A stretch of 64,000 bases of DNA from Acidiferrobacteraceae bacterium (GCA_011052015.1 DRJZ01000051.1:828-64827); one strand, 5' to 3'; positions 1,545 to 26,718 are shown, counted from the stretch's first letter. Made by a program: numbers and translations. Notes: generated from the sequence alone by a model not told the origin.

Positions 1545-2690
1545 ATGGCGTCCAACCGCGACAAAGCGAAAAATATTAATCACTGCCACGCCATCATACT
1601 TGCACTTAGTCTAATAGCCTGGGGACATCCGGCATGGAGTCAAAGTGATGCCAAATACAGCGCACAAATATATAAAAAAAACTGTGCCGCCTGCCATGAC
1701 ACGGGTAATGCCGGTGCACCCCCTCTTAGTGATGCAGGCAATTGGGATAACCGTCTCAGTTGGCCCCGCTGGGTCACCAACCGGCGCGTGATTAATGGCT
1801 ATGGCACCATGCCCCCCCGTGGCGGCAATAATGCCCTGTCAGACCAAGACGTCAAGGATGCGGTGACCTACATGATCGCGCGTATAGAAGCGGGGCCACA
1901 AAAAGAAGCCGAAAACCCAAAAAAGACATCTCGCCGCAACAAAAATAAAGCAACGCCAAACAATGGCAAGTATCACAAACCACCGCAAAACCGGGAAACG
2001 CCCAAAGACAGCTACGGGGATGAGGTCCGCCTGGGCAAGAAGATTTTCACCCAAACCTACAAATATGCGCGTCGCTATGTCGGCAATGAAATGAGTTGTG
2101 CCAACTGTCACCTGGATGCGGGCCGCAAGCCCAATGCCGCCCCGATGTGGGCGGCCTATGGTATGTATCCCGCCTATCGACGCAAAAATGATCGCACCAA
2201 CACCCTGCAAGAACGCATCCAACAATGTTTCCGGTTTAGCTTAAACGGTATTTCACCGGCCCTGGACGCACCGGAACTACGCGCACTCACGAGCTATATG
2301 CATTTTATTTCCAAAGGTGTACCCGTAGGGGTAAACATGCCAGGACGCGGTTACCCGCAAATCAAAAAGACCGGATTTGACCCCAACCCCGCTCGAGGCG
2401 AAACGGTTTATAAAACCAGATGCACATCCTGTCATGGCTCGAACGGTAAAGGCAAAAATAGGCCCGGCGGAGGCTATATCTACCCTCCCCTCTGGGGCGG
2501 TGATTCATACAACAAAGCCGCCGACATGTATCAGATTAAACATCTGGCTGGGTTCATCAAGACCAACATGCCTAAAGATCAGGAAGGGTCTCTGAGCGAC
2601 CAGCAAGCCCTGGACGCCGCCGCCTATATCAACACCCAACTGCGGCCCGGGGACCCCCGTAAGGGCCTCATCCAGAGCCTGTTTGACTGA
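1545..2690 (+). CDS. tsdA: Triheme c-type cytochrome: N-terminal cytochrome c5-like domain fused to TsdA-like diheme thiosulfate dehydrogenase
   Basis: GGAGGAG RBS 7 nt before ATG 1545; signal peptide; three CXXCH motifs (CAACH, CANCH, CTSCH); c5-like N-domain (NCAACHD...GAPPL...GYGTMPPRGG...DVKDAVTYMI); C-terminal part has TsdA-like features (Cys 39 residues after first heme His, PPLWGGDSYNKAADM after second heme); stop TGA 2688-2690 overlaps next ATG. Confidence 0.6.
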   Translation: MASNRDKAKNINHCHAIILALSLIAWGHPAWSQSDAKYSAQIYKKNCAACHDTGNAGAPPLSDAGNWDNRLSWPRWVTNRRVINGYGTMPPRGGNNALSDQDVKDAVTYMIARIEAGPQKEAENPKKTSRRNKNKATPNNGKYHKPPQNRETPKDSYGDEVRLGKKIFTQTYKYARRYVGNEMSCANCHLDAGRKPNAAPMWAAYGMYPAYRRKNDRTNTLQERIQQCFRFSLNGISPALDAPELRALTSYMHFISKGVPVGVNMPGRGYPQIKKTGFDPNPARGETVYKTRCTSCHGSNGKGKNRPGGGYIYPPLWGGDSYNKAADMYQIKHLAGFIKTNMPKDQEGSLSDQQALDAAAYINTQLRPGDPRKGLIQSLFD

Positions 2691-5539
2691 TGAACGCCAT
2701 GACGCAAACTATGATGCAAAAATTCTTCCCCTTTATGCAGTGGCTACCCTCTCTTGGGCAGACCACCCTGCGCCCGGACATGGAGGCGGGGTTCGTCGGT
2801 GCGATTTTGATCCTGCCCCAGGCCATCGCCCTGGCCACCCTCGCCGGTATGCCTCCGGAGTACGGTATCTATACCAGCATCTTCCCGGTCATCATTGCCA
2901 TGTTTTGGGGGTCATCATGGCATACCCTGTCCGGGCCCAATACGGCAGTCTGTGTGCTGATTGCATCATCGGTGGCCCCCTTCGCCGCCATCGGCAGCGA
3001 ACAATATATTGGCTTTGTGCTCGCACTGACATTCATGGCCGGTGCAATACAGTTAGCGGTAGGAAGCCTGCGCTTAGGGGCCATACTCGATTTCGTGTCC
3101 CACACAGTAATCTCCGCCATTGTGCTGGCGGTGGGCCTGATCATCATTGTATTTGCGGCCAACGCCCTGCTGGGGGTGTTAAGCAATCTGGACGAACCCT
3201 TTTATATTCGGCTTCACCAGATCATCCACGATATCCCCCGGGCCAATGGCTATGCCCTGTTGGTGGGAGGGCTCACCATTATCTCCGGCTTGGTAGCACG
3301 GCATTACTGGCGACGTTACTCCCTGGTCATTGCCGTGGCCGTGGGCATGTTGTCGGCGGGGGTCATCAACCTGCTTATGGGCTCGGCCTCCAGCGAACTG
3401 GAACTGCTCGGTACCCTCAGCATATCTGCGTTACCCTTTTCCGCCCCCTCCTTCGACCTGGGTTCCATGGCGGTGCTCAAGGAACTGGTAGCCAGCGCCC
3501 TCTCTATCGCCTTTCTGGGCCTGATGCAGACCATCGTAATCTCGCGTTCCATTGCCGCCAAATCTGGTCAACTTATCGAGACCAACCAAGAGATTATTGG
3601 CCAGGGCCTGGCCAATCTGGTGGCGCCCTTTGTTTCCAGCTTCGCGGGCTCCGGTTCCTTCAATCGTAGCGCCGCACACTACGATGCCGGCGCCAAGACA
3701 CCCATGGCCGCAGTTTATGCGTCGCTCTTTTTGCTGTTAGTGGTGCTCATCGCCACCAAACTGATTGCCTACATCCCCCTGGCCGCTGTGGCCGGCGCCC
3801 TGATTTTAGTCGGCATCGGCCTCATTGATGTTAAAGAAATCAAACAGGTGTTGCGCTCACGCCAAGAAGCGGTCATCTTCTTTATGACCTTCATCAGCTC
3901 CCTGGTCCTGGGACTGAATGCCGGTGTCTTTATTGGCGTACTGCTATCACTGGTAATCTATCTTTGGTACGCCTCTACACCCAATATTGTACTCGAAGAA
4001 CAGACCGCTCGGGACGGGCGACGGGTGAACATCATCACCGTCGATGGCGGCCTGTTTTTTGGTTCGGTACGCCACGTTGAACGGGTGCTCGCAAATCTAG
4101 GCGAAAGAGACGGCTATGATGGCAATCTGATCATCAGAACAGACCATATGACCTACATGGATGTTCCTGGCGCGGCACTGATCGCTGCTGAGGCTAAACG
4201 GCGCCGACAGCACAATGGTCACTTGTATATCTTTGTTACCCAACAAAAAATATCGGATGCACTTGGTCAATCCACCTTCTTTGATGAATTTGGTAAGGAT
4301 CACATTATAGAACGCAATCAAGACCACCCTATGAAAGATGTGTTATACCCCTCAAGAATAAAAAAACCCGCCAGTAGCACACAGACTAATGGCTCTGAAA
4401 AAAAAACCAATTCCCTATCACAATCTCACTCTAAAGATTTAAATGAAACTGCGACATTGGCCTCAAGCTTACAAAACACAAAACTCTTTTCCTTGCTCAA
4501 TACAGAACAAATCGAAACTTTGCTTAAAGACTCACCTATACAACATGGCAACACCGGCACCATCATCACCGATCCCGAAACTCCCATGTCCGGACACTTT
4601 GTGTTGTTGGAGGGTCGCGTTGATATCGAGCGCCTGTGGTCACTCCCTAAAGGTGGCGCCAAACGTACTAGCAGTATCATGGACCCCAATCAGGAAAATT
4701 CGGGTATCGCTATTCTACAGGCTTCGGGTCATGGTGTGCGCATCACCGCTAATGGTGTGATCACCTACCTTTTTATTGACTGCGAAAAGTTTGACTCACT
4801 TTTGGGCTGGAACCAACAACTTGCCGATATGGCCGAAACTGACCCGGAAATATCACGCCGCATGTCCCTTATAAAACATGCCGCTCTATTCCGCCAGCTT
4901 CCCCTGGAAAACCTCAAACAGGCCCTACAAAGCATGACTCCCCGGGACGTAAAGGGAGGAGAAACCATTGTACGCCAAGGTGAAACCGGTACTAGCTATT
5001 TCTTGATTGAGAGCGGTGAAGCCGGTGTGTGGAAAAAAGACACCTTTAGCGATGATACGGTCTACGCCAATACCATCGCGCCTGCGGCGCGCTTGGGTCC
5101 GGGGGAAGGCTTTGGTGAAGAGGCCTTGTTACAAAATGGCTTTCGAAGCGCTACTGTAATGATGACCACGCCGGGCCGGTTACTGGTGATGGACAAGCAG
5201 CACTTTGACGCCCACATCCGACCCTCGTCCATTAAAATGATTAGTCCCAGCGAGGCCATCAGATTTATCAAGGATAGCAAGGTGCAGTGGCTCGACTGCC
5301 GGTACGATCTGGAATATTCCGAAGCCCACATCCCCAATGCCTTGCATGTACCGTTAGATCAACTAAGGGAACAGCTTGCAGGCCTTGATCGCACCAAGCC
5401 ATGCATCGTTTATAGCCGCAATGAGCGCCGCAGCCGTGCAGCTGCGTTTTTGCTCACGGAACATAACTTCAACATCAAGGTACTGAAAGGCGGAATTATG
5501 CATTGGCCTTACGATCTCGAAGATGGAAAAACCGGGTAA
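2690..5539 (+). CDS. SulP-family anion transporter with STAS domain fused to two cNMP-binding-like domains and a C-terminal rhodanese-homology domain (catalytic Cys replaced by Ser)
   Basis: N-terminal SulP permease hydrophobic core (EAGFVGAILILPQAIALATLAGMPPEYGIYTS...), STAS-like region (VNIITVDGGLFFGSVRHVERV...), S/T/K-rich linker, canonical cNMP phosphate-binding cassette (FGEEALLQNGFRSATV), rhodanese fold ending PCIVYSRNERRSRAAAF (Ser where the active-site Cys is expected). Confidence 0.8.
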   Translation: MNAMTQTMMQKFFPFMQWLPSLGQTTLRPDMEAGFVGAILILPQAIALATLAGMPPEYGIYTSIFPVIIAMFWGSSWHTLSGPNTAVCVLIASSVAPFAAIGSEQYIGFVLALTFMAGAIQLAVGSLRLGAILDFVSHTVISAIVLAVGLIIIVFAANALLGVLSNLDEPFYIRLHQIIHDIPRANGYALLVGGLTIISGLVARHYWRRYSLVIAVAVGMLSAGVINLLMGSASSELELLGTLSISALPFSAPSFDLGSMAVLKELVASALSIAFLGLMQTIVISRSIAAKSGQLIETNQEIIGQGLANLVAPFVSSFAGSGSFNRSAAHYDAGAKTPMAAVYASLFLLLVVLIATKLIAYIPLAAVAGALILVGIGLIDVKEIKQVLRSRQEAVIFFMTFISSLVLGLNAGVFIGVLLSLVIYLWYASTPNIVLEEQTARDGRRVNIITVDGGLFFGSVRHVERVLANLGERDGYDGNLIIRTDHMTYMDVPGAALIAAEAKRRRQHNGHLYIFVTQQKISDALGQSTFFDEFGKDHIIERNQDHPMKDVLYPSRIKKPASSTQTNGSEKKTNSLSQSHSKDLNETATLASSLQNTKLFSLLNTEQIETLLKDSPIQHGNTGTIITDPETPMSGHFVLLEGRVDIERLWSLPKGGAKRTSSIMDPNQENSGIAILQASGHGVRITANGVITYLFIDCEKFDSLLGWNQQLADMAETDPEISRRMSLIKHAALFRQLPLENLKQALQSMTPRDVKGGETIVRQGETGTSYFLIESGEAGVWKKDTFSDDTVYANTIAPAARLGPGEGFGEEALLQNGFRSATVMMTTPGRLLVMDKQHFDAHIRPSSIKMISPSEAIRFIKDSKVQWLDCRYDLEYSEAHIPNALHVPLDQLREQLAGLDRTKPCIVYSRNERRSRAAAFLLTEHNFNIKVLKGGIMHWPYDLEDGKTG

Positions 5540-5609: not shown

Positions 5610-6704
5610 ATGAAAAAACTACTCAATCGACTCAAAGCGGAAAAGCTGTTTTCAATGCTGACCGAAAAACAGCTCCACACAGTCCTGGAACACAGCAAAA
5701 TCTGCAATGCCGAGGCCGGAGACGTGGTTTTCCCTCCTGACGAACCCATCACCCACTATCTCGTTATTGTTGATGGCGAACTTGGCTGTGAACGCCAATA
5801 CACCAACGCCGACGGCCAACAAGAATTCCGCCGCAGGGTACTGAAGGGCTGCGAGGCAGAGGGTGAGATCGCTGTACTCACCGCTGCGGGTCGCGGTTGC
5901 ACCGCGAGCGCCTTAACTCCTCTACGCTACATGCTGATCGAAGGCGATCTGATCGACGTATTTCTCGGCTGGAACCAGCAAGTGTCCCGCGCCATCGTCA
6001 ATGACCCTGAACTCACTCACCGCGCCAAGCTCGTTAAACAGGTCAACGTCTTTCATCAATTGCCCCTGGAAAACATCCAAGCGGCCTTCAAACGCATGTC
6101 AACAATTGAAGTGGGTGCCGGAAACACCGTGGTCAACGAGGGGGATTCCGGGGACTGCTACTATGTGATCGAAACCGGCACCGCAGAAGTATGGCGAACC
6201 GATCCCTTCACCGACGAAACCAAACTGGTTGCAGAATTTGGCCCTGGAGACGCCTTTGGGGAAGAGGCCTTGCTGCAAAATGCCCTGCGCAATGCCACCG
6301 TTAAAATGACATCGCCGGGGAGCTTGCTGGTACTCCAAAAATCCGACTTTGATGAATTGGTGCAACCCAAGTTTCTCCAGGAAGTCGAGGCCGATGTTGC
6401 CCGGGATATGGTCGATCAGGGCAAGGCAAAATGGCTGGACTGCCGGTACGAAATGGAATACGAAGAATCTCGCATACCCAATGCCCCCCTCATCCCCCTG
6501 GACCGCATTCGAGAAAACACCCATAAGCTGGATTCCGACTCCACCTACATCGTCTACTGCCGTAGCGGTCGGCGCAGCAAGGCAGGGGCATTCTTGCTGC
6601 GCGAGCGAAATATTAAGGCCCTGTCCATGATTGGAGGCATCGCTAACTGGCCTTTTGAAATCGATGCCGAAGCCATAGATTTAACCGATACCCACACCAC
6701 GTAA
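5610..6704 (+). CDS. Standalone tandem cNMP-binding-domain / rhodanese-domain protein (paralog of the C-terminal module of the upstream SulP fusion), active-site Cys present
   Basis: AAGGGGG RBS before ATG 5610; FGEEALLQNALRNATV phosphate-binding cassette; rhodanese loop YIVYCRSGRRSKAGAF (CRxGxR type); about 45-50% aa identity to residues ~600-949 of the 2690..5539 protein. Confidence 0.75.
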   Translation: MKKLLNRLKAEKLFSMLTEKQLHTVLEHSKICNAEAGDVVFPPDEPITHYLVIVDGELGCERQYTNADGQQEFRRRVLKGCEAEGEIAVLTAAGRGCTASALTPLRYMLIEGDLIDVFLGWNQQVSRAIVNDPELTHRAKLVKQVNVFHQLPLENIQAAFKRMSTIEVGAGNTVVNEGDSGDCYYVIETGTAEVWRTDPFTDETKLVAEFGPGDAFGEEALLQNALRNATVKMTSPGSLLVLQKSDFDELVQPKFLQEVEADVARDMVDQGKAKWLDCRYEMEYEESRIPNAPLIPLDRIRENTHKLDSDSTYIVYCRSGRRSKAGAFLLRERNIKALSMIGGIANWPFEIDAEAIDLTDTHTT

Positions 6705-6878: not shown

Positions 6879-9275
6879 CTAGATTACAGCCGCACTATTG
6901 CTGCCTTTTTCCCGGAGTCGTGCAAAAGCGATGAAAGCCGCCATATAGATGACCAGCGCTATCAGAAATAATAATTTAAATCCGATATATAGCGTCAACA
7001 CAACGCTCAGGACTCCTCCAATTACGGTAAACAGACCGTTCATGCCCCATGCCCATGGTATGGCGCCTTTTGGTTGATCCTGGATCGCCAATATACCCAG
7101 AGGCAGAGGCATGCCCATGAATATACCCAGGGGAATTATCATTGCTAATGATATCCCGATCCTTATCCAGATGGGTTCTTGCAGGAACGTATTAAATATC
7201 CAATGGTACGAGAATAGAAAAACAATCCCTATTGTCGCTATTCCGATAAATGGCCAATACCATTTATTTTTAACATCGATACCCAATTTCTGGGCTGCCA
7301 GACTGCCTAGTCCTGCCGCCAAGAGTAATGCAAACACGACCGTCGAATAGGTGTAAAGTGGATACCCGATCAGCTTCATGAACATCTGGATAAACATTAA
7401 TTCGATAATGATGAATCCAGCCCCAAGACATGAGAAATAAATGAGAGTCGTGGTTTTGGAATTCCAATGCGCCCGCCCCGCACTTGAATAATAGAGAGGG
7501 GCAACAATAAATAACACGATAAATATTAATGATGCGTAGCTTGTGATCACCAGGTGGAATATTTCTCGTGGAATACCCAGTTTACTAAGTTGTGAATTTA
7601 ACAGCGACGCGGTTGAGTAATCCATGTAAACGCCGCTTCCAGGCATTATTTTCTCGGTACTCTTGCGGAGGAAGTTGAAGAACGGTCTATTGTCGGTAGA
7701 GGCGAAAATATTGAACGGACTTTTTTCTATCGTTTCGGGAGATAACCTGCCGCTAAAATACTCGTCTGGGAGATATCTATTTTCACCGGATAAAGGATCC
7801 TCAACCAACTCTCTCTTTGAAATGATGCTATTCATTTCCGTGACTTCTTTTTGTGTCCAGGGACTCATTTTGACCATAAATGTGGGTAGATTGTCCTGAA
7901 ACCCTTTTGTTTTGTTTTGATAAACCAAAACGTGTTGCCTGAAGCTCGTGTAACCCAGTTTTCTCCAGGCTGCGGCGGCAGTGGTAACCATGCGTGGATA
8001 TACATGGTGGTTTATTTGCAGGACGCCATCTTTCTTCAGGTGCCTGAAATACTCTATATAGGCTTCGACGGTCTGGAGATAGGTTGTCGCCATTGCTCCA
8101 TTGCCCGCCGCGATGCTTGAGCTTGTGTGGTTGCTGAATATCTGGATGATGTCGTATCTCTTATTTTCCGATCTCAGGAAGCTTCTACCTTCCCCTTTGA
8201 GGTAGTTCACATTAGGATGATTGTAGATTTGTCCATTGTATGACGCGTATTTCTTCTTACCCAGTTCCACGACATAACCGACCAGTTCGATGGCGTCGAT
8301 AGTGGCTGCACCATAGGTAAGCGCCGCTTTGACTTCCTGCCCACCGGCACTGCCGATGACGAGAACGTCCTGTTGGCTATCACGCTTGAGATAATGTGAT
8401 GCAATGACAGCCGGATGCGTAAATTGTTGCCGATAATTTGCCGGCAGCCCCTTGCGCAGTTTCTTAAAATTACCATCGAACTTGACGACAACACTTGTCT
8501 GTGACCCTCCGTCATATAGAATATCTTTTCTTGCTTCAAAACCCGCCACGTCTATCTTCGATACCGGATCCCAATGGGTCAATTCTATTTTTCCCAGTAA
8601 TCGTAGTGTCCTGATGTTCCGCTTATCGCCGTGCGCCTTAAATACGAAGTAATCGGCCGAAGACACAAAGGGTGCGACTATACATGCCGTACCAATAACT
8701 AGCGCCACGTTTCGCCATACAATGTGCTTCGCAAATAAGCCCGACGCGATAATGCAAATCCCACCCACCATAAACAATAGGCCACCTGGACCCACATATG
8801 GCAAAAATGGAATAATAGCAATGCTGCCGAGACCCGCACCGATCAGGTCCCAGAAATACAGCGTTCGGATATTCGATGCGTACTTGGAAAAAAGAATCGC
8901 AAATACACTGCCCGAGAAGAAGAACGGTAAGGCCAGCACAAAATATACTATAAGTATAAGAAACACACCCTTTTTCGGATCAGAGAATAAAATATCAAAA
9001 TCAAAGTCCAGGTAATTTAATACAGGAAGTATTACTATGCTGAAAACACCGAATGCAAAGGCCATCACAGATAATCTGAATGCCGGGTCCTTGTGTGCAG
9101 CCAGCGGCTTTAAAGATAAATATATACCTGCCAGGGCAAAGCAGAACAAGGCGAGTGTTATCACCATATACGCCATGTGCGGAGCCCACAGCGAATCAAA
9201 TATCTTAATTAAAGTTAGTTCCAGCATCAAGGTTGCGAAAGCAACCATGAACAGTGCAACCTTGGTTTTAATCAT
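6879..9275 (-). CDS. Fused MFS-like membrane domain / spermidine-synthase-like (PABS methyltransferase-fold) integral membrane protein
   Basis: Many predicted TM helices at both ends; central Rossmann/PABS-like motif (VLVIGSAGGQEVKAALTYGAATIDAIELVGYVVELGKKKY...YDIIQIF); markedly AT-rich codon usage relative to the neighbours. Confidence 0.5.
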   Translation of the reverse strand: MIKTKVALFMVAFATLMLELTLIKIFDSLWAPHMAYMVITLALFCFALAGIYLSLKPLAAHKDPAFRLSVMAFAFGVFSIVILPVLNYLDFDFDILFSDPKKGVFLILIVYFVLALPFFFSGSVFAILFSKYASNIRTLYFWDLIGAGLGSIAIIPFLPYVGPGGLLFMVGGICIIASGLFAKHIVWRNVALVIGTACIVAPFVSSADYFVFKAHGDKRNIRTLRLLGKIELTHWDPVSKIDVAGFEARKDILYDGGSQTSVVVKFDGNFKKLRKGLPANYRQQFTHPAVIASHYLKRDSQQDVLVIGSAGGQEVKAALTYGAATIDAIELVGYVVELGKKKYASYNGQIYNHPNVNYLKGEGRSFLRSENKRYDIIQIFSNHTSSSIAAGNGAMATTYLQTVEAYIEYFRHLKKDGVLQINHHVYPRMVTTAAAAWRKLGYTSFRQHVLVYQNKTKGFQDNLPTFMVKMSPWTQKEVTEMNSIISKRELVEDPLSGENRYLPDEYFSGRLSPETIEKSPFNIFASTDNRPFFNFLRKSTEKIMPGSGVYMDYSTASLLNSQLSKLGIPREIFHLVITSYASLIFIVLFIVAPLYYSSAGRAHWNSKTTTLIYFSCLGAGFIIIELMFIQMFMKLIGYPLYTYSTVVFALLLAAGLGSLAAQKLGIDVKNKWYWPFIGIATIGIVFLFSYHWIFNTFLQEPIWIRIGISLAMIIPLGIFMGMPLPLGILAIQDQPKGAIPWAWGMNGLFTVIGGVLSVVLTLYIGFKLLFLIALVIYMAAFIAFARLREKGSNSAAVI

Positions 9276-9504
9276 TCTCGCACCCTTCAGATAATAAATT
9301 CCTGATTATTTTTGTGCATTTTGAAACAATCTACGCCTACTTAATCAATGCCTGTCTCACAAGATCAAAGCCATATGACAGATAAAATTATTGGCGACGG
9401 AGTAATAAAAACTTCCTCTATCTCAATAAACTCGCTATGGTTTCCCCATAAATTTTCCTGAAGAGCCATAAAACATAACATGAATGATACTACAGACACG
9501 CTAT

Positions 9505-9550
9505 CTATGACATGCCTTTCTCTGTGAGCTCCGTGCCTCCGCGGCAAAGA
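9505..9550. repeat. Single arm of the REP-like family (TCTCTGTGAGCTCCGTGCCTCCGCGG)
   Basis: Shares the CTCTGTG..CTCCGTGCCTC core with the arms at 49767-49924 and shorter versions at 12745-12785 and 28428-28468. Confidence 0.45.
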
Positions 9551-9637
9551 GAAGGCTGTATTCATATTTGCTCACAGCATTGGGTTAAAACCCATTAAAC
9601 CCAGTTTATTAGGGGACAAGAAAAGAGGAGGTGTTGC

Positions 9638-11305
9638 ATGTTAAATATTCAAATTAGTTTTGGTAAGGCAGCGGCGATCACGGTAGGTCTTGCCCTATTG
9701 CTTTACAAGTTATGGCTGGTCGAGGTTCATGATCTCTTCATGATAGGCAGCCCCATGGATGACCTGTTTTTTGTGCGTTCCGCCCAAGAATTGCTGGCCG
9801 GTAACTGGCTGGGCCGCTATACACAATACACGCTGATGGCCGGACCGGTCTACTCCATGTGGATCGCCCTGTGCTACCTGCTCGCAGTGCCCTTACACGT
9901 GGGCCAGCAACTGCTTTATGCCGGCGCTTCCCTGGTGACGGTTCTGGCCCTGTATCCGGTGGTGAGGCATAAGGGTTGGTTGCTGCTTGCCTTCGCCTAT
10001 CTTTTATTTAACCCCTTTACCTATGACTATTCATCGTCTGCCGGCGCCTTCCGGTTGGGGATTTACCCGGCCCTTGCGTTGCTGGTAATCGGGTGCGCCA
10101 TTGGCCTATATACGCGGGCCACGGTCCCCCGGGGCAAACCGTTGCCGTGGGCCGTGGGCCTCGGGGTGGCCTTGGCGGCGTTTTGGTATACACGCGAGGA
10201 GGGTATATGGATCGTGCCGGCGTTAGTGCTTACCGGCTTGTTTGTGGCCATACACGGCCGCACCCGCGGGCAGCGCCGCTGGACCTGTATTTTAGGCTTG
10301 CTCGCGGTGCCTCTGCTGATCTGGACGGGTTCATTCCTTGCGCTTGGGTATATGAATTGGAAGCACTACGGCATCTTCACCGACCTCGAGATCAAGAGCA
10401 CCGAATTCAAGTCAGCCTATAGCGCCTTGATCAGTGTGCGCAGCAATAAACACCAACGGTACTACCTGTTGGAGGCTCCGGTGAGTACCGCTCTAATCAA
10501 GGTGAGCCCTGCGTTCCGGGAGATCAAGCTTTATGTTGGTAAACTTCCTGCCTCGGTTTTTATCTGGTCCCTGCGCGATGCGGTGCAGGCAGCCGGGTAT
10601 TATGACCATGCCGGAAACGATGATCGAAAAAATGGACCGAAGACATTGGATTTTTATAAAAGGTTGGGCGATGAGATTCACCGGGCATGCGATACGGGGC
10701 AATTGACCTGTGATCGGTTGCTGTCATCGTTTGTCCCCGCGTGGACCGAGGAGTATAACCGTGAAATCTTTCCTACCCTTTACGATGTCACCAGAAAGTT
10801 ATTGACATTTGATGGCTTCGATCCGCGCATGCTCGCGAAATGGGTCAGCAGTGATCCCTATGACACATCTTGGTTGTTTACCTATATCACCGGCGAGCGG
10901 TTGCGTACCACCGATCCGGCTGTGCTCAGCAAAGTGCCCGAGGCGCACAGAGAATTTGAGGACATGAAGACTCATCGCCTCCTGCGCATCGGCCGCGACT
11001 ACTACCAGAATCTATTGCCATGGTTGTTTTGGCCCAGCGTAGTCGTGATATTGTTGGTTGCCCTCGTGGAGGCGATCAAAAGAAGAATGTCGCAAGTGAC
11101 AGTGGCTGCATTGATCGTGTTAGCGGCCCTCGTGTCGCATATCACGATTATCTCGCTGGTCGCGATGATGTCGACATTCGCACAGCGCTATTTGTTCGCT
11201 TCCTATCCTTTTGTCATTCTGGTCGTAATCCTGAGTGCGATTATGGTAGTACGCGTTATCACCACTTTGCGCGGCGGTATTGATGACATGGGCAATAGGA
11301 CATGA
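9638..11305 (+). CDS. GT-C fold glycosyltransferase-like polytopic membrane protein (ArnT/PMT-like)
   Basis: N-terminal TM followed by a DD/E motif in the first loop (PMDDLFFVRSAQELLAGNWLG), multiple TM helices, periplasmic domain, two C-terminal TM helices. Confidence 0.4.
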   Translation: MLNIQISFGKAAAITVGLALLLYKLWLVEVHDLFMIGSPMDDLFFVRSAQELLAGNWLGRYTQYTLMAGPVYSMWIALCYLLAVPLHVGQQLLYAGASLVTVLALYPVVRHKGWLLLAFAYLLFNPFTYDYSSSAGAFRLGIYPALALLVIGCAIGLYTRATVPRGKPLPWAVGLGVALAAFWYTREEGIWIVPALVLTGLFVAIHGRTRGQRRWTCILGLLAVPLLIWTGSFLALGYMNWKHYGIFTDLEIKSTEFKSAYSALISVRSNKHQRYYLLEAPVSTALIKVSPAFREIKLYVGKLPASVFIWSLRDAVQAAGYYDHAGNDDRKNGPKTLDFYKRLGDEIHRACDTGQLTCDRLLSSFVPAWTEEYNREIFPTLYDVTRKLLTFDGFDPRMLAKWVSSDPYDTSWLFTYITGERLRTTDPAVLSKVPEAHREFEDMKTHRLLRIGRDYYQNLLPWLFWPSVVVILLVALVEAIKRRMSQVTVAALIVLAALVSHITIISLVAMMSTFAQRYLFASYPFVILVVILSAIMVVRVITTLRGGIDDMGNRT

Positions 11306-11889
11306 TGTCGGTATAGCGGGTTTAACACACAGAGCCGTCCGGCAAGTATTACACGCAACAACGGGTTACGCACCAGTGTCGGGATTGCAATGCAGGGCAA
11401 TGGCGACACAATGTTGCAATTGCGCACGCTCGTCCATACACAAAAGTTTGTTTATGCCTGGACGCGAATGGTGCAACAGGTCTATGGATATCCGGATATG
11501 CGATGGATTTGCTGTAGTGCGGGATATCCTACAGCGTACCGTGCACAGCTACCTGCCCCTACTGAATTATACCGATCGGCAGGCGACCGGTATTCGGTGC
11601 CTCAGCCTGTCCCGTTGCATCGGTAGGGTGATCAATCCTGCAGAGGACCGTTTTAGGGAGAACGATCCGGTCACCATGCGACTCCCGCTCTATGCAGCAG
11701 AGCACGAAAACGAACTATGGACGTGTTTCTTTAAGGGAAGGCTCAGTGGGGTAAAAAGAATCATCAATTAACAAAAGTGCCCATATGTCTATTACTCATG
11801 GAATAAAACTACCCCCCTATAACGTCTACTAAAGTGATTTGAAGAAACCTCACTTTCAGAAACCTCTAGGAGATAAACCCGTGACCAAG

Positions 11890-12351
11890 ATGAAACGCAG
11901 AGCATTTCTCAAGGGCAGCATGGCTGGGAGTGTGCTCGCCATAGCGGTCGGCGCCGGGCTACTGCGCCCTACCCAAGTCATGGCCAGCCAATGGCCGGAT
12001 AAGGCCTTTAAAGCACGCAACCTCGCCGATGCGGTCAACAGTCTATATGGCAGTTCAGACGTTGCGGACAGCAAAGCTATCAAGATTCGTGCGCCTTTAC
12101 AGGCAGAAAATGGCGCCAAGGTGCCAATTCAGATCCTCACCGATCTACCAGCAGAATCTATTGCCGTCTTTGTTAAGGAAAACGCCATGCCCTTGGCAGG
12201 GCGCGCCAATCTGCGCAATGCCAGTGGTTTTTTTAGTACCCGTATCAAGATGGGTAAGAGTTCCGATGTGGTCGCTGTGATCAAATCAAAAGGCAAGCTC
12301 CACTCAACCAAGCTGGCGATTAAAGTCACTGTAGGTGGTTGCGGCGGCTAA
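11890..12351 (+). CDS. soxY: SoxY sulfur-carrier protein, copy 1
   Basis: Tat-like signal MKRRAFLKG; C-terminal GGCGG swinging-arm motif; ORF track starts at 11839 but ATG 11890 (MKRRAFLKG) is the likely start. Confidence 0.85.
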   Translation: MKRRAFLKGSMAGSVLAIAVGAGLLRPTQVMASQWPDKAFKARNLADAVNSLYGSSDVADSKAIKIRAPLQAENGAKVPIQILTDLPAESIAVFVKENAMPLAGRANLRNASGFFSTRIKMGKSSDVVAVIKSKGKLHSTKLAIKVTVGGCGG

Positions 12352-12388
12352 CCCATTTCGATATTGATATTTAAAGAGGAATATAATC

Positions 12389-12706
12389 ATGGCAAGAAAG
12401 ACTAAAGTACGCACCCGCATGCAAGACGGCAAAGTCGAAGTATTGATTCTGATCACCCACCCCATGGAGACCGGCCTTCGCTCTGATAAAAAAACCAAAC
12501 AAAAGATCCCGGCCCACTTCATTCAAACCCTGGATGTCATCCTGAATGGAGAACCGGTGGCCAACGCCGAACTGGGGATAGGCATCTCTACCAACCCATT
12601 ACTGGGTTTCCGTCTCAATTCGGCGAAAACCGGTGATAAACTACAAATTAAATGGAAGGATAACAAGGGGGAGAGTGGAACCATCAACAGCAAAGTCGAT
12701 CTCTGA
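12389..12706 (+). CDS. soxZ: SoxZ, copy 1
   Basis: 105 aa, immediately downstream of soxY; about 50% identical to SoxZ copy 2 (ITHPMETGLRSDKKTKQKIPAHFIQ..., GESGTIN). Confidence 0.85.
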   Translation: MARKTKVRTRMQDGKVEVLILITHPMETGLRSDKKTKQKIPAHFIQTLDVILNGEPVANAELGIGISTNPLLGFRLNSAKTGDKLQIKWKDNKGESGTINSKVDL

Positions 12707-13210: not shown

Positions 13211-14134
13211 CTAACTTGATCCCTCATCAACACCGGTCTTTTGTTTTTCACAGTGGTCGTGGGCAAAACCCATGAACTCTTCCATGGCCCGCAGACGAAA
13301 TTTTTGGCGCTGATAGACCAGGGCAAAGGGCCTGACCAACGGAGGATCGAGCTTGACCGTTGCCAATGTCCCCAGACTGATTTCCTTGCCCAAGGTGGCC
13401 TCGGAAATAATCGAAATACCGAGACCCGCTTCCACCGCACTCTTTACCGACTCTGGGCTACCAAACTCCATGGCCACATTTATCTGACTTAGGCTGATAC
13501 CATTTTGCTCGAGGTAATTTACGATAAAATCGCGCGTACCTGAACCCTCTTCCCGGCATATAAATGGATAACCAGTCAAGTCTGCCGCGCCAATCGAGAT
13601 CTGGCCCGCCAGTTCGTGACCATTGGGACAGATCAGCACTAAATTGTCGTGCCAACAGACCTCCACAACCAGATTCTTGTTGCTCACCGGTGATTCGACG
13701 ATCCCTATGTCAACCTCATTATTTTCCACCATGTGGACAATGCCTATAGAATTGGATACCCTGACGCGGATCTTGACCTCTGGAAATTGCTTCTGAAATT
13801 CTCCTAACAGAGCGGGTATCACATATTCTGCGATCGTGGTGCTGGCCCCTATCAGCAACAGACCCATAATATCGCCAGTCAGCCGCCGTACCTCATTTTC
13901 CATTTCGTTGTACAACGCGATAATACGGTCGGCATATTGGTAGACCTGCTCACCGGCATCGGTCAGGTTAATCTTGTTGTGGGTACGATCAAACAGGCGG
14001 GTATTGAAGTATTCTTCCAACTGCCGGATCTGAAATGTAACCGCCGGCTGGGTCATGTGCAAAGAATCCGCCGCCTTAGTAAAACTCAGCAAGCGGGCGA
14101 CGGTATAAAAAACCTGTAGGCGGCGATCAGCCAT
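13211..14134 (-). CDS. LysR-family transcriptional regulator
   Basis: N-terminal wHTH (LQVFYTVARLLSFTKAADSLHMTQPAVTFQIRQLEEYFNTRLFDR) and LysR substrate-binding domain. Confidence 0.85.
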   Translation of the reverse strand: MADRRLQVFYTVARLLSFTKAADSLHMTQPAVTFQIRQLEEYFNTRLFDRTHNKINLTDAGEQVYQYADRIIALYNEMENEVRRLTGDIMGLLLIGASTTIAEYVIPALLGEFQKQFPEVKIRVRVSNSIGIVHMVENNEVDIGIVESPVSNKNLVVEVCWHDNLVLICPNGHELAGQISIGAADLTGYPFICREEGSGTRDFIVNYLEQNGISLSQINVAMEFGSPESVKSAVEAGLGISIISEATLGKEISLGTLATVKLDPPLVRPFALVYQRQKFRLRAMEEFMGFAHDHCEKQKTGVDEGSS

Positions 14135-22296: not shown

Positions 22297-23115
22297 ATGA
22301 AGAAGCTTATTATTGCAGTAACGGCTCTTGGATTGCTGGCGTTTGGTTCGCTATCGGTCCAAGCTAGCCCTCAAAGTGACCTGAAAGCATTTCAGGGATA
22401 CTTTAAGAAAAACTTCCCAAAAATCAAATTCGACGATTTCTCAAATGGTCTTTATGCCCTTCCTGAGGCCGCCGACCGGCGCGCCGAATGGGAGGCCATC
22501 GAAGAATTCCCACCTTATGAGCTTGACCTCGCCAAGGGTAAGAAGTTTTGGGAGAAAAACAAGCTGGGTACCTGCTTTAAGAATGGCGGTGCCGGTATTG
22601 CCCAAAACTACCCCTACTGGGACAAGAAAAAGAAGGAAGTCCGCACCGCAGAGTTGGACATCAATGCCTGCTTGAAACGGCAAGGCAAAAAGCCTATCAA
22701 AAAAGGCAAATTGGCTACCGTAACCGCCTATTTCTATAACATGGCGCGGGGCAAACGGATCAAGATTGACGTGTCAGCTCCTGGCGCTATTGCCGAATAT
22801 GAGAAGGGCAAGCATTTCTTCTGGGCCAAGCGCGGCCAGTTGAACTTCTCATGCGCCAACTGTCACATCAGCGGGGCAGGCAAGCGGGTTGGCGGTAACA
22901 TCATGAGTACGGCTCTGGGTCACGGTACCGGTTTTCCGGCCTACCGCTCCAAGTGGGGCGGTCTGGGTACCATCCACCGCCGTTATAAAGGCTGCAACAA
23001 GCAGGTGCGGACTGCGCCATTAAAGCAGAACAACAAGACGTACCGTGCACTGCAACTGTATGAAACATATATGAATACAGGCCTGCCTTTGACGGCACCC
23101 AGTAACCGGTTCTAG
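22297..23115 (+). CDS. soxA: SoxA, monoheme type
   Basis: Signal peptide; single CANCH heme motif; Cys ligand in RRYKGCNKQVR; no second CXXCH. Confidence 0.85.
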   Translation: MKKLIIAVTALGLLAFGSLSVQASPQSDLKAFQGYFKKNFPKIKFDDFSNGLYALPEAADRRAEWEAIEEFPPYELDLAKGKKFWEKNKLGTCFKNGGAGIAQNYPYWDKKKKEVRTAELDINACLKRQGKKPIKKGKLATVTAYFYNMARGKRIKIDVSAPGAIAEYEKGKHFFWAKRGQLNFSCANCHISGAGKRVGGNIMSTALGHGTGFPAYRSKWGGLGTIHRRYKGCNKQVRTAPLKQNNKTYRALQLYETYMNTGLPLTAPSNRF

Positions 23116-23142
23116 CACCTACCGTAATAAAATGGGGTACCA

Positions 23143-23172
23143 AAGCCCGGCCCCAGTGGCCGGGCTTTTTTT
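23143..23172 (+). terminator. Rho-independent terminator after soxA
   Basis: AGCCCGGCC-CCAGT-GGCCGGGCT perfect stem followed by TTTTTTTT. Confidence 0.65.
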
Positions 23173-23319
23173 TAATAAGTTGCATGGGGATTCAGCGCAT
23201 AATTAAAACGTTTGGAATGGCCCTGAACCCTGTAGCGTTCTAGTTCTAGTGCGGGGTAACCCACTAAACATACGCTACTAAATAATTACAACAGACCGTT
23301 TGATGATGGAGCTAAGAAG

Positions 23320-25068
23320 ATGAGCCTTTCCCGACGTGAATTCCTCCAACTGCTGACTGCAGCCAGTGCCGCAGGATTCGCCCTGCCAGGCTGCGACAGC
23401 AGCAACACCACGACCGCGCATACCACAGCTTCATCTACCAACCCGGCCGACCCCTATGAGCTAAAGCCGTTTGGTAATGTTTCCTTTATGCACTTTACCG
23501 ACTGCCACGCGCAACTGCTACCCGTGCATTTTAGAGAACCCAACATTAACCTGGGTTTCGGTAGCGCCTATGGCAAGGCCCCGCATCTGGTAGGCGACAA
23601 GTTCCTGAAGCATTTCGGCATCAAACCCGGCACACGTGAGGCCCATGCCTTTACCTACCTGAACTATGTCGAAGCCGCGCAAAAATACGGCAAGGTCGGT
23701 GGCTTTGCCCATCTTGCCACCCTCGTCAAACAGATTAAGGCGCAGCGTCCAAACGCTCTACTACTCGACGGTGGTGACACTTGGCAGGGTTCGGCCACCG
23801 CACTGTGGACCAAGGGTCAAGATATGATAGATGCCTGTAAGCTTCTGGGCGTGGACGTTATGACCGGCCACTGGGAGTTCACCTATGGAGCCAAACGGGT
23901 ACAGGACATCATCAAGAATGATCTTGATGGCCATATAGAATTTCTAGCTCAAAATGTGGTGGAAACCACGTTTGAAGACCGCATTTTTAATCCCTATACC
24001 ATTAAAGAACAAAATGGCATCAAAATCGCGGTCATCGGCCAGGCCTTCCCTTACACACCGATTGCCAACCCACGTTACATGATCCCGGATTGGAGCTTCG
24101 GTATTCGTGATGAGGCCCTGCAAGAACTGGTTGACGAGGTGCGTGGCAAAGGGGCCCAAGTGGTAGTTATCCTGTCTCACAACGGCATGGACGTGGACCT
24201 CAAGATGGCTAGCCGGGTAACCGGTGTCGATGCCATCATGGGTGGTCACACCCACGACGGGGTTCCGGCGCCCAGTGTCATCAGCAACTCCAATGGCAAA
24301 ACCCTGGTTATCAACTCGGGCTCAAACGGAAAGTTCTTGTCGGTGCTGGACCTCGAAGTCAAAGGGGGCAAAGTTAGCGATTATCGCTTCAAGATGCTGC
24401 CGATATTCTCGAATCTCATCAAGGCCGATGCCCAGATGACTGCCCATATCAATAAGGTCCGTGCACCTTACAAGGCCAAACTTGAAGAAAAGCTGGCCAT
24501 CACCGACAGCCTGCTCTACCGGCGGGGCAACTTTAATGGCACCTTTGATCAACTGATTCTGAATGCCCAAATAGAGGTCCAGGGCGCTGATATGGCGTTT
24601 TCACCGGGATTTCGTTGGGGCGTGAGTCTACTACCGGGAGAGGCCATCACCCGTGAGGCCTTGATGTCTCAGACCGCAATCACCTACCCCAAGGCCACCC
24701 TCAACACAATAACGGGCGAAAACCTGAAGACCATCATGGAAGGCATCGCCGACAACCTGTTCCACGAAGATCCCTACTATCAGATGGGTGGAGATATGGT
24801 GCGAACCGCCGGATTAAAATACACCATTGACCCCACCGCAAAGATGGACCACCGAATCAGCGATATGGAGATAAACGGTTCAAAAGTAGAGGCCAGCAAG
24901 GAATATCTAGTCGCTGGCTGGGCTGCGGTTAACCCGGTACCGAAGGGTCGACCCATCTGGGACATCGTCGAGGAATACCTGAAATCCATTAAAGTCGTCA
25001 AAATAGACAAACCCAATGTGCCAAAATTAAAAGGGTCAAGCGGCAACCCAGGTATTGCAAGTATATAA
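23320..25068 (+). CDS. soxB: SoxB thiosulfohydrolase (5'-nucleotidase/metallophosphatase family)
   Basis: Tat signal SRREFLQLL; metallophosphatase motifs (FMHFTDCHAQL, GGDTWQGS, GHWEF, GGHTHD); 582 aa. Confidence 0.9.
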   Translation: MSLSRREFLQLLTAASAAGFALPGCDSSNTTTAHTTASSTNPADPYELKPFGNVSFMHFTDCHAQLLPVHFREPNINLGFGSAYGKAPHLVGDKFLKHFGIKPGTREAHAFTYLNYVEAAQKYGKVGGFAHLATLVKQIKAQRPNALLLDGGDTWQGSATALWTKGQDMIDACKLLGVDVMTGHWEFTYGAKRVQDIIKNDLDGHIEFLAQNVVETTFEDRIFNPYTIKEQNGIKIAVIGQAFPYTPIANPRYMIPDWSFGIRDEALQELVDEVRGKGAQVVVILSHNGMDVDLKMASRVTGVDAIMGGHTHDGVPAPSVISNSNGKTLVINSGSNGKFLSVLDLEVKGGKVSDYRFKMLPIFSNLIKADAQMTAHINKVRAPYKAKLEEKLAITDSLLYRRGNFNGTFDQLILNAQIEVQGADMAFSPGFRWGVSLLPGEAITREALMSQTAITYPKATLNTITGENLKTIMEGIADNLFHEDPYYQMGGDMVRTAGLKYTIDPTAKMDHRISDMEINGSKVEASKEYLVAGWAAVNPVPKGRPIWDIVEEYLKSIKVVKIDKPNVPKLKGSSGNPGIASI

Positions 25069-25482: not shown

Positions 25483-26718
25483 TTATACTGCTTCGAGCTT
25501 GCGCATGGCCTTGGGTAGCATGCGCATATCCACCAACGAACTGACCAATGCAGCGTAAAAGTTGGCCTCGTCTTCGTACACCATTCGGTAATATTGAATT
25601 TTCATGGTTAAGGCACTGCCAAACACGATAGAGAAGAACACCAATATTGATCCAAGGGCCAACGTGGATATGCCAGTAATCGCCTGGCCGACGGTACAGC
25701 CCATAGCCAACACCCCACCCACACCCATCAGTACCGCACCCATGGCGTGCCTAAAGAAATCTCCAAATGAGGCAAACCACTCAATACTGAATCGTTTCGA
25801 GATAATGGCGTATAAAAACGACCCCACGATAACACCGAACAGGGCCATTACACCAAAGTTTATGAAGCTGACTTTAGTAGGGCTCGACAAATAGCGCCAG
25901 GTATCACCCGTGGGACTGACAAATGTATAGGACTGGGCCATCACCCGGCTTGGGATCTCATCGGCAAATTCAGCATAGGCTTTCCATTCCTCACCCATAG
26001 GGCCCGCAGTAATGTACCAACCCGCAATAATCACCAAACCAATGACAAATCCAGCGAGTACATTATCAAACCGGCTGCGAAAATCTGTGGATACAAACAC
26101 AAATATCGCCAGGGACAGGGCAATTAAGCCACCAAACACAAAATGCAACATAGAGGTATCCTCCATGCCGATCGCGCCACCGATAATAGCGCCAAGCTCC
26201 TGGCTCCCAATGCCCATTGCCGCCAAATCCACGGTCGTGGGCTGAATCCAGGGCATGAAATAATTGGTAAAAATACCTTCACCCGGCGCCAAGGGATCCT
26301 CTCCCCACAGCATCATATAGGCAGAAGCAGCAATAATAACGAGCACAACAATGGATTTGATATTGCCGCCACCGATACGTACCAGGGTACGCTGAGCGCA
26401 ACCACTCCCTAAGGTCATACCGATGCCGAACAAGGTGCCCCCCAGGACATACCGCAACCAGGCAAAATTGGCCGTACGATAAGGCGGGAAGGTCGCTGTA
26501 CCCAGTTCAATTTTGCCCAAATACTCAAGCAACAGCACACCAGCCAAGGCCACGGTCATAGCAAACACCCACGCCCGTAAACGTCCAGTGTCGCCCATAT
26601 TGACCCAGTCGGAGACCGCACCCATGGTACAAAAATTTGTTTTGAAAACTATCGCACCCATAAATACAGCGAGCAGGAATACGAGTAATAAAACTTGAAT
26701 ATGGATAGTAAATTCCAC
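25483..26718 (-). CDS. YeeE/YedE-family (TsuA-like) putative thiosulfate/sulfur-compound transporter
   Basis: Two internally repeated halves, each with the conserved Cys motif (FCTMGAVSD and GCTVGQAITGIS); highly hydrophobic, 411 aa. Confidence 0.7.
   Translation of the reverse strand: MEFTIHIQVLLLVFLLAVFMGAIVFKTNFCTMGAVSDWVNMGDTGRLRAWVFAMTVALAGVLLLEYLGKIELGTATFPPYRTANFAWLRYVLGGTLFGIGMTLGSGCAQRTLVRIGGGNIKSIVVLVIIAASAYMMLWGEDPLAPGEGIFTNYFMPWIQPTTVDLAAMGIGSQELGAIIGGAIGMEDTSMLHFVFGGLIALSLAIFVFVSTDFRSRFDNVLAGFVIGLVIIAGWYITAGPMGEEWKAYAEFADEIPSRVMAQSYTFVSPTGDTWRYLSSPTKVSFINFGVMALFGVIVGSFLYAIISKRFSIEWFASFGDFFRHAMGAVLMGVGGVLAMGCTVGQAITGISTLALGSILVFFSIVFGSALTMKIQYYRMVYEDEANFYAALVSSLVDMRMLPKAMRKLEAV

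Follow-up and report, generated by a model that had tools for sequence, protein, structure and literature searches.

A 64,000-nucleotide stretch of a metagenome-assembled genome (MAG) from an Acidiferrobacteraceae bacterium (GCA_011052015.1 DRJZ01000051.1:828-64827; hereafter the window, with positions counted from its first nucleotide) contains a gene for a SulP-type transporter that ends in a rhodanese domain. In the encoded fusion protein the membrane and STAS domains are followed by two cyclic nucleotide-binding (CNB) domains and by a rhodanese homology domain in which the catalytic cysteine is replaced by serine, whereas a second gene immediately downstream encodes a related protein with the cysteine in place. 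Database entries HEC12202.1, HEC12203.1 and HEC12204.1 are the exact proteins of this locus, from the Acidiferrobacteraceae MAG. An initial annotation, made from the sequence alone, had reported the serine/cysteine difference, and both peptides were found as it had given them, with Ser909 of the fusion corresponding to Cys317 of the downstream protein. The features of the two genes are as follows.

2690–5539, plus strand: gene for the SulP-STAS-CNB (degenerate)-CNB-rhodanese fusion, 949 amino acids (HEC12203.1; full-length orthologues exist)
2768–3889, plus strand: SulP/SLC26 membrane transport domain, residues 27–400 (Pfam PF00916, Sulfate_transp, E 4.5e-71)
4022–4306, plus strand: STAS domain, residues 445–539 (PF01740, 31.1 bits against a cut-off of 22.6)
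4457–4849, plus strand: first CNB-like domain, degenerate, residues ~590–720 (aligns with the first CNB domain of the paralogue; beta-roll and helices in the AlphaFold2 model)
4943–5212, plus strand: second CNB domain, residues 752–841 (PF00027, cNMP_binding, E 2.9e-15)
5243–5506, plus strand: rhodanese homology domain without the catalytic Cys, residues 852–939 (PF00581, E 9.4e-18)
5297–5299, plus strand: Cys870 in LDCRYDLEY, at the position of the Cdc25 'backdoor' Cys (column Cys in 231 of 243 homologues)
5414–5416, plus strand: Ser909 (AGC), which replaces the catalytic Cys in the active-site loop (alignments, codon comparison)
5423–5425, plus strand: Glu912 (GAG) at an otherwise nearly invariant loop Gly, turning CRxGxR into SRNERR (homologue alignment)
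5610–6704, plus strand: gene for the CNB (degenerate)-CNB-rhodanese paralogue, 364 amino acids (HEC12204.1; two cNMP_binding stretches and Rhodanese by Pfam)
6390–6650, plus strand: rhodanese domain of the paralogue, residues 261–347 (PF00581, E 1.5e-14; aligned to solved single-domain rhodaneses)
6441–6443, plus strand: paralogue Cys278 at the backdoor position (LDCRY..EY motif)
6558–6560, plus strand: paralogue Cys317 (TGC), predicted persulfide-forming nucleophile, in the loop C317-R-S-G-R-R (alignments)

The succession of Sulfate_transp and STAS (Pfam) places the fusion in the SulP/SLC26 family, and its rhodanese domain scored 65 bits against the PF00581 cut-off of 22.2. The protein fell below the cut-offs of the characterised SulP subfamilies (TIGR00815, 273.8 against 380 bits; DauA, 167.7 against 614; BicA, 116.9 against 880). 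A 328-residue open reading frame (ORF; 2683–3669, plus strand) overlaps the first third of the SulP gene in another frame, and a similar ORF was present (5925–6506) in the related locus L003, which comes from a second MAG (Gammaproteobacteria bacterium M_MetaBat.112). The GC-rich composition of the membrane domain is the most likely cause of the overlapping ORF, which would then be an artefact.

The active-site loop of the fused rhodanese domain reads KPCIVYSRNERRSRAAAF (residues 904–920, nt 5399–5449), and that of the paralogue reads YIVYCRSGRRSKAGAF (residues 313–328, nt 6546–6593). In a BLASTP alignment of the two proteins, Ser909 (VYSRNERRS) faces Cys317 (VYCRSGRRS). The alignment to characterised rhodaneses that the initial annotation had recommended was made with HMMER against solved structures, and both residues fell on the loop Cys of PspE (2JTQ, VYCNAGRQS), 3TP9 (VYCRTGGRS), 3GK5 and 3IWH. 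Among 243 aligned homologous modules, the catalytic column contained Cys in 234, Ser in 8 and Gly in 1, a bias well beyond chance, and the loop-Gly column contained Gly in 231, Glu in 8, Asp in 3 and Pro in 1. The loop cysteine of active sulfurtransferases (CRxGx[RT]) is absent from the fused copy (S-R-N-E-R-R) and present in the paralogue (C317-R-S-G-R-R), in agreement with the canonical CRxGxR loop previously ascribed to the latter.

Active and inactive rhodaneses are told apart by this cysteine, and its replacement by serine abolished the sulfurtransferase activity of TSTD1 (C79S) and the phosphatase activity of Cdc25B (C473S) (PMC7274447). The fused domain has the characteristics of an inactive rhodanese, in that the fold is kept, the loop cysteine is replaced and the domain is part of a multidomain protein. 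By analogy with the Cys-to-Ser mutants, it is almost certainly catalytically inactive through loss of the nucleophile. Cys905, in the motif PCIVYS, was considered as a substitute nucleophile and rejected, being present only in the window and L003 proteins and not in P0001 or P0197, two further orthologues with the serine.

That a sequencing or assembly error, or a frameshift, masks a real cysteine at this position is next to impossible. A single base does separate AGC from TGC, and the initial annotation had named such an error as an event that could restore the cysteine. However, L003 has the same gene order as the window, and its 949-residue orthologue (87% identical overall, 88% in the rhodanese domain) has an identical loop, SRNERRS. 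Since the codons AGC...GAG and the reading frame are shared by this independent assembly although synonymous divergence (dS) is about 0.8, an error at Ser909 was rejected. Moreover, the ORF of the fusion is uninterrupted, and the serine is kept in two more metagenomic orthologues of about 50% identity, P0001 from locus L001 (SRSDRRS) and P0197 from locus L010 (SRGERRS). The fused rhodanese domain is under strong purifying selection, with no decay: the ratio of nonsynonymous to synonymous substitutions (dN/dS; Nei-Gojobori, window versus L003) was 0.079 for the Ser-rhodanese domain, 0.093 for the whole fusion and 0.042 for the rhodanese domain of the paralogue.

Departures of the window clade from positions conserved in at least 80% of the homologues numbered only four, S909, E912, I929 (Ala in 94%) and G779. 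With departures so few and two of them in the loop, hardly anything has changed outside the active site. An AlphaFold2 (AF2) model of residues 590–949, built from 78 homologues, had a predicted local distance difference test score (pLDDT) of 92 and a predicted template modelling score (pTM) of 0.77, with pLDDT values of 90–96 through the fused rhodanese domain, and the active site was modelled as a normal strand-loop-helix. The scarcity of departures, the low dN/dS and the model all bear out the earlier statement that the fold and the flanking residues are conserved.

Within the altered loop, R910, R913, R914 and Ser915 are retained and the loop length is unchanged. Taken with the strong purifying selection, and with the position of the domain on an anion transporter encoded beside a TsdA-type gene (see below), these residues would suit a non-covalent ligand sensor. 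The Ser-rhodanese would then bind thiosulfate, sulfite or sulfate in its Arg-lined cradle but not convert it, as substrate-trapping mutants do, and would exert allosteric control over gating of the SulP domain, with the paralogue acting as an independent sulfurtransferase. We consider this sensor, the main rival to the explanation favoured below, to be unlikely. In every independent Cys-to-Ser lineage of this module the loop Gly has become Asp or Glu, which introduces a negative charge into the anion cradle at a residue that is glycine in all but 12 of the homologues. The acidic substitution weakens the sensor, although the loop arginines remain. Of the 'non-catalytic sensor or docking module' proposed in the initial annotation, 'non-catalytic' is thus in keeping with the absent nucleophile, whereas 'sensor' has lost ground to the acidic residue in the anion-binding loop.

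The distribution of the serine was determined by three protein searches, in which the tail was the query of a word-index search, the whole fusion that of an exhaustive HMMER search and a Ser-clade profile that of a second word-index search. Serine was found only in the window protein, its L003 orthologue, P0001, P0197, P0015 (a free 361-residue protein, SREDRRS), P0128 (an 834-residue fusion, SNSEKRA, in which part of the Arg/Ser signature is lost) and P0218. P0001 is cut by a contig end; its first residues, HPMKDVLYPSR, are those of the linker after STAS in the window protein, and it is therefore the C-terminus of an orthologous fusion. P0218 (SNTSRRA) belongs to a separate family of SulP-STAS-rhodanese proteins of about 720 residues without CNB domains (P0182, P0205, P0218 and P0229), and P0229 has an extra metallophosphoesterase-like region. 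The Ser-clade profile returned P0001 and P0197 only, all its other matches carrying Cys. A metagenome scan with the Ser-clade alignment found no new member of the clade, yielding distant modules of at most 36% identity without SulP or TsdA nearby.

The Cys and Gly loop was present in the full-length fusions P0121, P0122, P0123, P0124, P0126, P0129 and L004, and also in the partial or shorter fusions P0016, P0131, P0161, P0133 and P0212. With cysteine in all other full-length fusions, the serine is a derived state of a small clade and no general trait of transporter-attached domains. The idea that an inactive transporter-attached domain characterises the family at large was therefore not upheld.

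Phylogeny was examined by neighbour-joining with the loop columns masked and 200 bootstrap replicates. The window, L003, P0001 and P0197 sequences formed a clade with 66% support. Because this Ser clade joined P0015 in 0 of 200 replicates and P0128 in 8%, and because the window clade encodes the serine by AGC but P0015 by TCC, the Cys-to-Ser change in this module appears to have no fewer than two origins, more probably three, every one of them accompanied by a change of Gly to Asp or Glu. Indeed, the loop-Gly position is acidic in the window protein and in all four other Ser variants retrieved from the CNB-rhodanese module family (P0001, P0197, P0015 and P0128), as against 3 of about 237 Cys forms. 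The coincidence of Ser with Asp or Glu is suggestive and not overwhelming, since GGN to GAN is a single transition.

The recurrence of this pair within a pocket that is otherwise strictly conserved could also be taken as a sign of a new catalytic site, with Ser as the nucleophile and Asp or Glu as the general base of an Arg-rich pocket, for example in the hydrolysis or transfer of sulfo- or phosphoesters. We regard this as very improbable. The ease of the GGN to GAN change speaks against it, as does the partial loss of the signature in P0128 (SNSEKRA), and we know of no rhodanese-fold enzyme that uses serine. The initial annotation had allowed for serine as the norm of a separate, active subfamily; Ser with Asp or Glu is the norm in a small conserved subclade, but nothing shows catalytic activity there.

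The downstream gene starts 70 nt after the fusion with a Shine-Dalgarno-like AAGGGGG ahead of it, and no terminator-like site was found in the 70-nt gap. BLASTP aligned the whole 364-residue protein with residues 590–944 of the fusion (39% identity over 355 residues, E 1e-92). By this alignment, the downstream gene is a paralogue of the entire C-terminal 360 residues of the fusion. The 'standalone' rhodanese of the initial annotation does bear the cysteine, but it is a three-domain CNB-CNB-rhodanese copy of the whole tail and no free rhodanese.

A co-directional paralogue directly follows the Ser fusion in all four Ser-clade loci, the window, L003, L001 (38-nt gap, paralogue loop CRSGRRS) and L010 (16-nt gap, with the N-terminus of the paralogue alone on the contig). 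No neighbouring paralogue was found beside the Cys fusions of L004, L008, L011 and L012. In two related loci (L093, 181–3577; L094, 99–3495), a free CNB-CNB-rhodanese gene with the cysteine (P0004) starts 23 nt after an FHA-SulP-STAS gene (768 residues, without CNB or rhodanese domains). This arrangement is the window fusion in split form and, by a Rosetta-stone argument, it speaks for free CNB-CNB-rhodanese proteins as partners of these SulP transporters. The FHA domain of the L093/L094 SulP gene is an N-terminal phosphopeptide-binding domain. For the distant free-standing CNB-rhodanese genes (L013–L018) a SulP neighbour was not found, and the transporter link is accordingly limited to the subfamily that includes the window proteins. 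Synteny and the split-gene relative thus support a functional partnership of paralogue and transporter, which is the link between the two proteins that the initial annotation had suggested; a physical interaction would be a plausible form of it.

These arrangements also bear on the possibility that the fused domain is a structural relic, which serves the folding or oligomerisation of the tail, lost its cysteine neutrally and is accompanied by an unrelated regulator. Distant CNB-CNB-rhodanese modules fused elsewhere do have degenerate loops (for example CNDSSQS and GEEPGGS), and Ser variants without an adjacent paralogue occur. However, 234 of the 243 modules have the cysteine and conservation of the CRxGxR loop is high, so the cysteine is not neutral in general. 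In addition, tandem synteny was kept in 4 of 4 Ser-clade loci at 50–87% identity, the split SulP-STAS and CNB-CNB-rhodanese arrangement argues for partnership, and the repeated change of Gly to Asp or Glu looks directed, unlike drift. A structural relic is accordingly an improbable explanation, and a purely neutral one is unlikely given the conservation pattern.

In a Foldseek search with the AF2 model, its first two domains matched the paired CNB domains in the regulatory subunits of PKA and PKG (E ~1e-18), and no solved CNB-CNB-rhodanese structure was found. The motif FGE...R[ST]A is the phosphate-binding cassette of CNB domains. It is intact in the second CNB domain of both proteins (FGEEALLQNGFRSA in the fusion, residues 808–821; FGEEALLQNALRNA in the paralogue), and with the PF00027 match nucleotide binding by this domain is predicted; the first CNB domain of the fusion is without the FGE...RxA cassette. 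The second CNB domain also contains a six-residue insertion (residues ~789–795) that is specific to the Ser clade (the window, L003, P0001 and P0197; DTFSDDTVYANTIAPAARLGPG versus DPFTDETKLVAEFGPG in the paralogue), and pLDDT dips to 75–81 at this insertion. The initial annotation had mentioned neither the two CNB domains nor the co-substitution of Gly to Glu912.

Both rhodanese domains contain LDCRY..EY, and the best PDB matches of this motif were to VDCRYPYEY of Cdc25B. The DCRY cysteine is what we take to be the backdoor residue of Cdc25, consistent with the chain numbering. In Cdc25 the backdoor cysteine forms a disulfide with the catalytic cysteine (Buhrman et al. 2005, as cited in PMC4351059). 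This suggests a Cdc25-like thiol switch in the Cys forms of the module, including C278/C317 of the paralogue.

The gene upstream of the fusion encodes a predicted TsdA-type cytochrome.

1545–2690, plus strand: tri-haem c-type cytochrome with an N-terminal mono-haem domain and a TsdA-type thiosulfate dehydrogenase/tetrathionate reductase core (Pfam SoxA-TsdA_cyt-c, Cytochrome_CBB3 and Cytochrom_C)

The N-terminus of this cytochrome resembles a signal peptide, and the protein contains three CxxCH motifs. Its residues 145–372 match two solved structures, Allochromatium vinosum TsdA (4WQ7, E 4.6e-46) and, within TsdBA, the TsdA portion (5LO9, E 7e-55). The haem-ligating Cys of CFR[FY]S is kept (QQCFRFS aligned to QGCFRYS), and the di-haem SoxA/TsdA core, the CxxCH motifs and this ligating Cys together point to a TsdA-type enzyme. 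The TGA stop of the cytochrome gene overlaps the ATG of the fusion as TGATG (2688–2692). A TsdA-type gene precedes the fusion in the same overlapping position in five lineages (the window, L003, L005/L006, L008 and L011), with tusA further upstream in L005/L006; no TsdA-type gene was in that position in L007 or L009, the comparison covering the loci with upstream sequence and thus neither L004 nor L012. The tsdA-like cytochrome, the sulP fusion and the paralogue form an apparent operon.

The explanation that we favour, with moderate confidence, is that the fused domain is a pseudo-rhodanese acting as a scaffold or regulatory domain of the transporter tail, with persulfide chemistry supplied in trans by the paralogue. 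The ancestral tail rhodanese would have had a canonical CRxGxR loop of the thiosulfate-sulfurtransferase type, as most relatives still do. In the window clade this loop would then have been altered at two positions, Cys909 to Ser and Gly912 to Glu, with the remainder under strong purifying selection. Because Cys and Gly are altered while everything else stays under purifying selection, the fused domain has most likely become a catalytically dead pseudo-rhodanese that is retained for a structural or regulatory role and may provide a scaffold or docking surface in the tail. The acidic side chain of Glu912 probably neutralises the former anion cradle, and the domain is probably no anion sensor. 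The paralogue, predicted to be co-transcribed, would form a persulfide on Cys317, possibly with a Cdc25-like switch at the backdoor Cys278, and is proposed to associate with the transporter tail. In this manner, a cyclic nucleotide signal and the sulfane-sulfur or redox state of the cytoplasm might be coupled to an anion flux that accompanies periplasmic TsdA activity, the substrate (thiosulfate, tetrathionate, sulfite or sulfate) and the direction of transport being likewise presumptive.

Several observations weigh against the pseudo-rhodanese explanation. The kept loop arginines R910, R913 and R914, with Ser915, would also fit retained anion binding, and the explanation gives no reason for the conservation of Cys870 in the fused copy, where the catalytic partner of this residue is missing. 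The Ser clade consists of four sequences, two of which are fragments, and its bootstrap support is moderate. In L005/L006, a Cys fusion has a neighbouring paralogue, in convergent orientation and from a different clade, and hence a paralogue alone does not entail loss of the cysteine. Conversely, the Ser variants P0128 (L009) and P0015 (L002) are without an adjacent Cys paralogue within the sequence at hand, and trans-complementation is therefore no general requirement. The operon structure, finally, was deduced from spacing only. A strict rule by which a fusion would carry Ser if and only if a paralogue is adjacent was rejected, given the Cys fusion with a paralogue in L005/6 and the Ser variants without one in L009 and L002.

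A more speculative possibility, which we hold to be doubtful, is that the pair of Ser with Asp or Glu represents a distinct state of the rhodanese domain. The carboxylate could be a 'loaded-state mimic' in the anion/persulfide cradle or part of a new Ser/acid site, making the fused domain the fixed half of a heteromeric switch with the Cys paralogue. The protein would then be a SulP transporter for thiosulfate/tetrathionate that is coupled to TsdA and controlled jointly by persulfide/redox state and cyclic nucleotides. If this were true, the heteromeric Ser/Cys rhodanese switch would regulate dissimilatory sulfur oxidation in a way that has not been described before.

Rhodanese domains without catalytic activity are familiar, and the Cys-to-Ser change is by itself unsurprising. 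According to the PF00581 description quoted in PMC4351059, inactive rhodanese domains include the N-terminal one in tandem rhodaneses and the non-catalytic ones in MAPK phosphatases. The fused domain resembles these in having an intact fold, no Cys at the first loop position and the status of an attached, non-catalytic module. It differs from them in that Ser is coupled with a change of Gly to Asp or Glu in a loop that is otherwise a sulfurtransferase signature, in that the fused copy is a recent derivative of an active-looking ancestor within one orthologous family, and in that it is paired with an adjacent Cys-bearing copy of the same three-domain module. The rhodanese domain of the paralogue is the same size as GlpE and PspE of E. 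coli and has a six-residue loop of the CRxGxR type, and PspE aligns across that loop. The equivalog cut-offs were not reached, however (NCBIfam NF001195, NF007627 and TIGR02981; GlpE, 23.4 and 22.3 against 102 bits; PspE, 18.8 and 25.3 against 102), and here the domain lies C-terminal to two CNB domains and has the Cdc25-like DCRY cysteine, with the loop Cys missing from the fused copy.

Similarity to Cdc25 phosphatases is confined to the DCRY motif, where [LV]DCRY..EY..HI..A aligns with VDCRYPYEYEGGHIKTA of Cdc25B and the cysteine is nearly invariant in the family of the window protein. The family has the six-residue C-X4-R loop of sulfurtransferases, unlike the C-X5-R loop of Cdc25. As in PKA and PKG regulatory subunits, the predicted fold of residues 590–845 matches tandem CNB-A/CNB-B domains, and the cassette of the second (FGE...RSA) is intact. 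In contrast to them, the window protein is bacterial, its first CNB domain is without the cassette, its output is a rhodanese domain and a transporter with no kinase, and the TM scores are low (about 0.3–0.4) because the domain arrangement differs. The SulP-STAS-rhodanese fusions of about 720 residues (P0182 and P0205) likewise join SulP and STAS to an enzyme-like cytoplasmic domain related to the presumed substrate. Such fusions are present in databases, presumably TCDB among them, and SulP–carbonic anhydrase fusions reportedly exist as well (TCDB 2.A.53 is said to describe them, as are Felce and Saier in 2004). The window protein differs from other SulP proteins with extra C-terminal domains in the PKA-R-like tandem CNB region between STAS and rhodanese, in the overlap of its gene start with a tsdA-type gene and in the Cys-less rhodanese.

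A literature search for SulP with rhodanese, STAS or CNB, and for TsdA with SulP, found no paper on the architecture or the operon, the matches being generic genome descriptions. Since no paper on them was found, four features appear to be new: the SulP-STAS-CNB-CNB-rhodanese architecture coupled to tsdA, the apparent pair of a dead fused and a live free paralogue, the recurrent Ser with Asp or Glu signature, and the Cdc25-like Cys in a sulfurtransferase-type domain. A SulP family with a tandem CNB and rhodanese tail, whose genes overlap tsdA and are presumably translationally coupled to it in several lineages of sulfur oxidisers, points to an unstudied step of transport and regulation in thiosulfate/tetrathionate metabolism, in which a role of cyclic nucleotides is suggested as a possibility. 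The predicted dead fused domain and live free paralogue would constitute a natural experiment that separates the scaffold role from the thiol chemistry. Cys to Ser with Gly to Asp or Glu is also a concrete signature by which rhodanese domains that are inactive or re-purposed can be predicted from sequence.

More distantly, CNB-CNB-rhodanese forms the N-terminus of proteins of 1,100–1,750 residues from marine and sediment metagenomes (L017, L019, L020, L023, L024, L028, L030–L032 and L040), and relatives of 670–750 residues (L021, L025–L027, L029, L037 and L041) have strongly degenerate loops, for example VCGEEPGGS.

The wider window contains soxYZ, soxA, a soxB-like gene and a YeeE-type sulfur transporter gene, which fits a sulfur-oxidising organism. 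These sulfur-oxidation genes (11839–12706, 22297–25068 and 25483–26718) encode a SoxA-type cytochrome, a SoxB-like protein of the 5'-nucleotidase family, a SoxY that ends in GGCGG and exceeds the TIGR04488 cut-off, a likely SoxZ and a YeeE/YedE-type sulfur (thiosulfate) transporter, the last on the minus strand. The interval from the paralogue to soxYZ (6879–11305) holds two membrane-protein genes, one on the minus strand for a protein of 798 residues with a weak spermidine-synthase-like middle domain and one for a protein of 555 residues without a family match. In L003, soxY directly follows the paralogue, so that the pair at 6879–11305 looks like an insertion in the lineage of the window. 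A LysR regulator gene (13211–14134, minus strand) scored above the cut-off of NF040786, 'selenium metabolism-associated LysR' (272.9 against 250 bits), and is conserved beside the same genes in L003.

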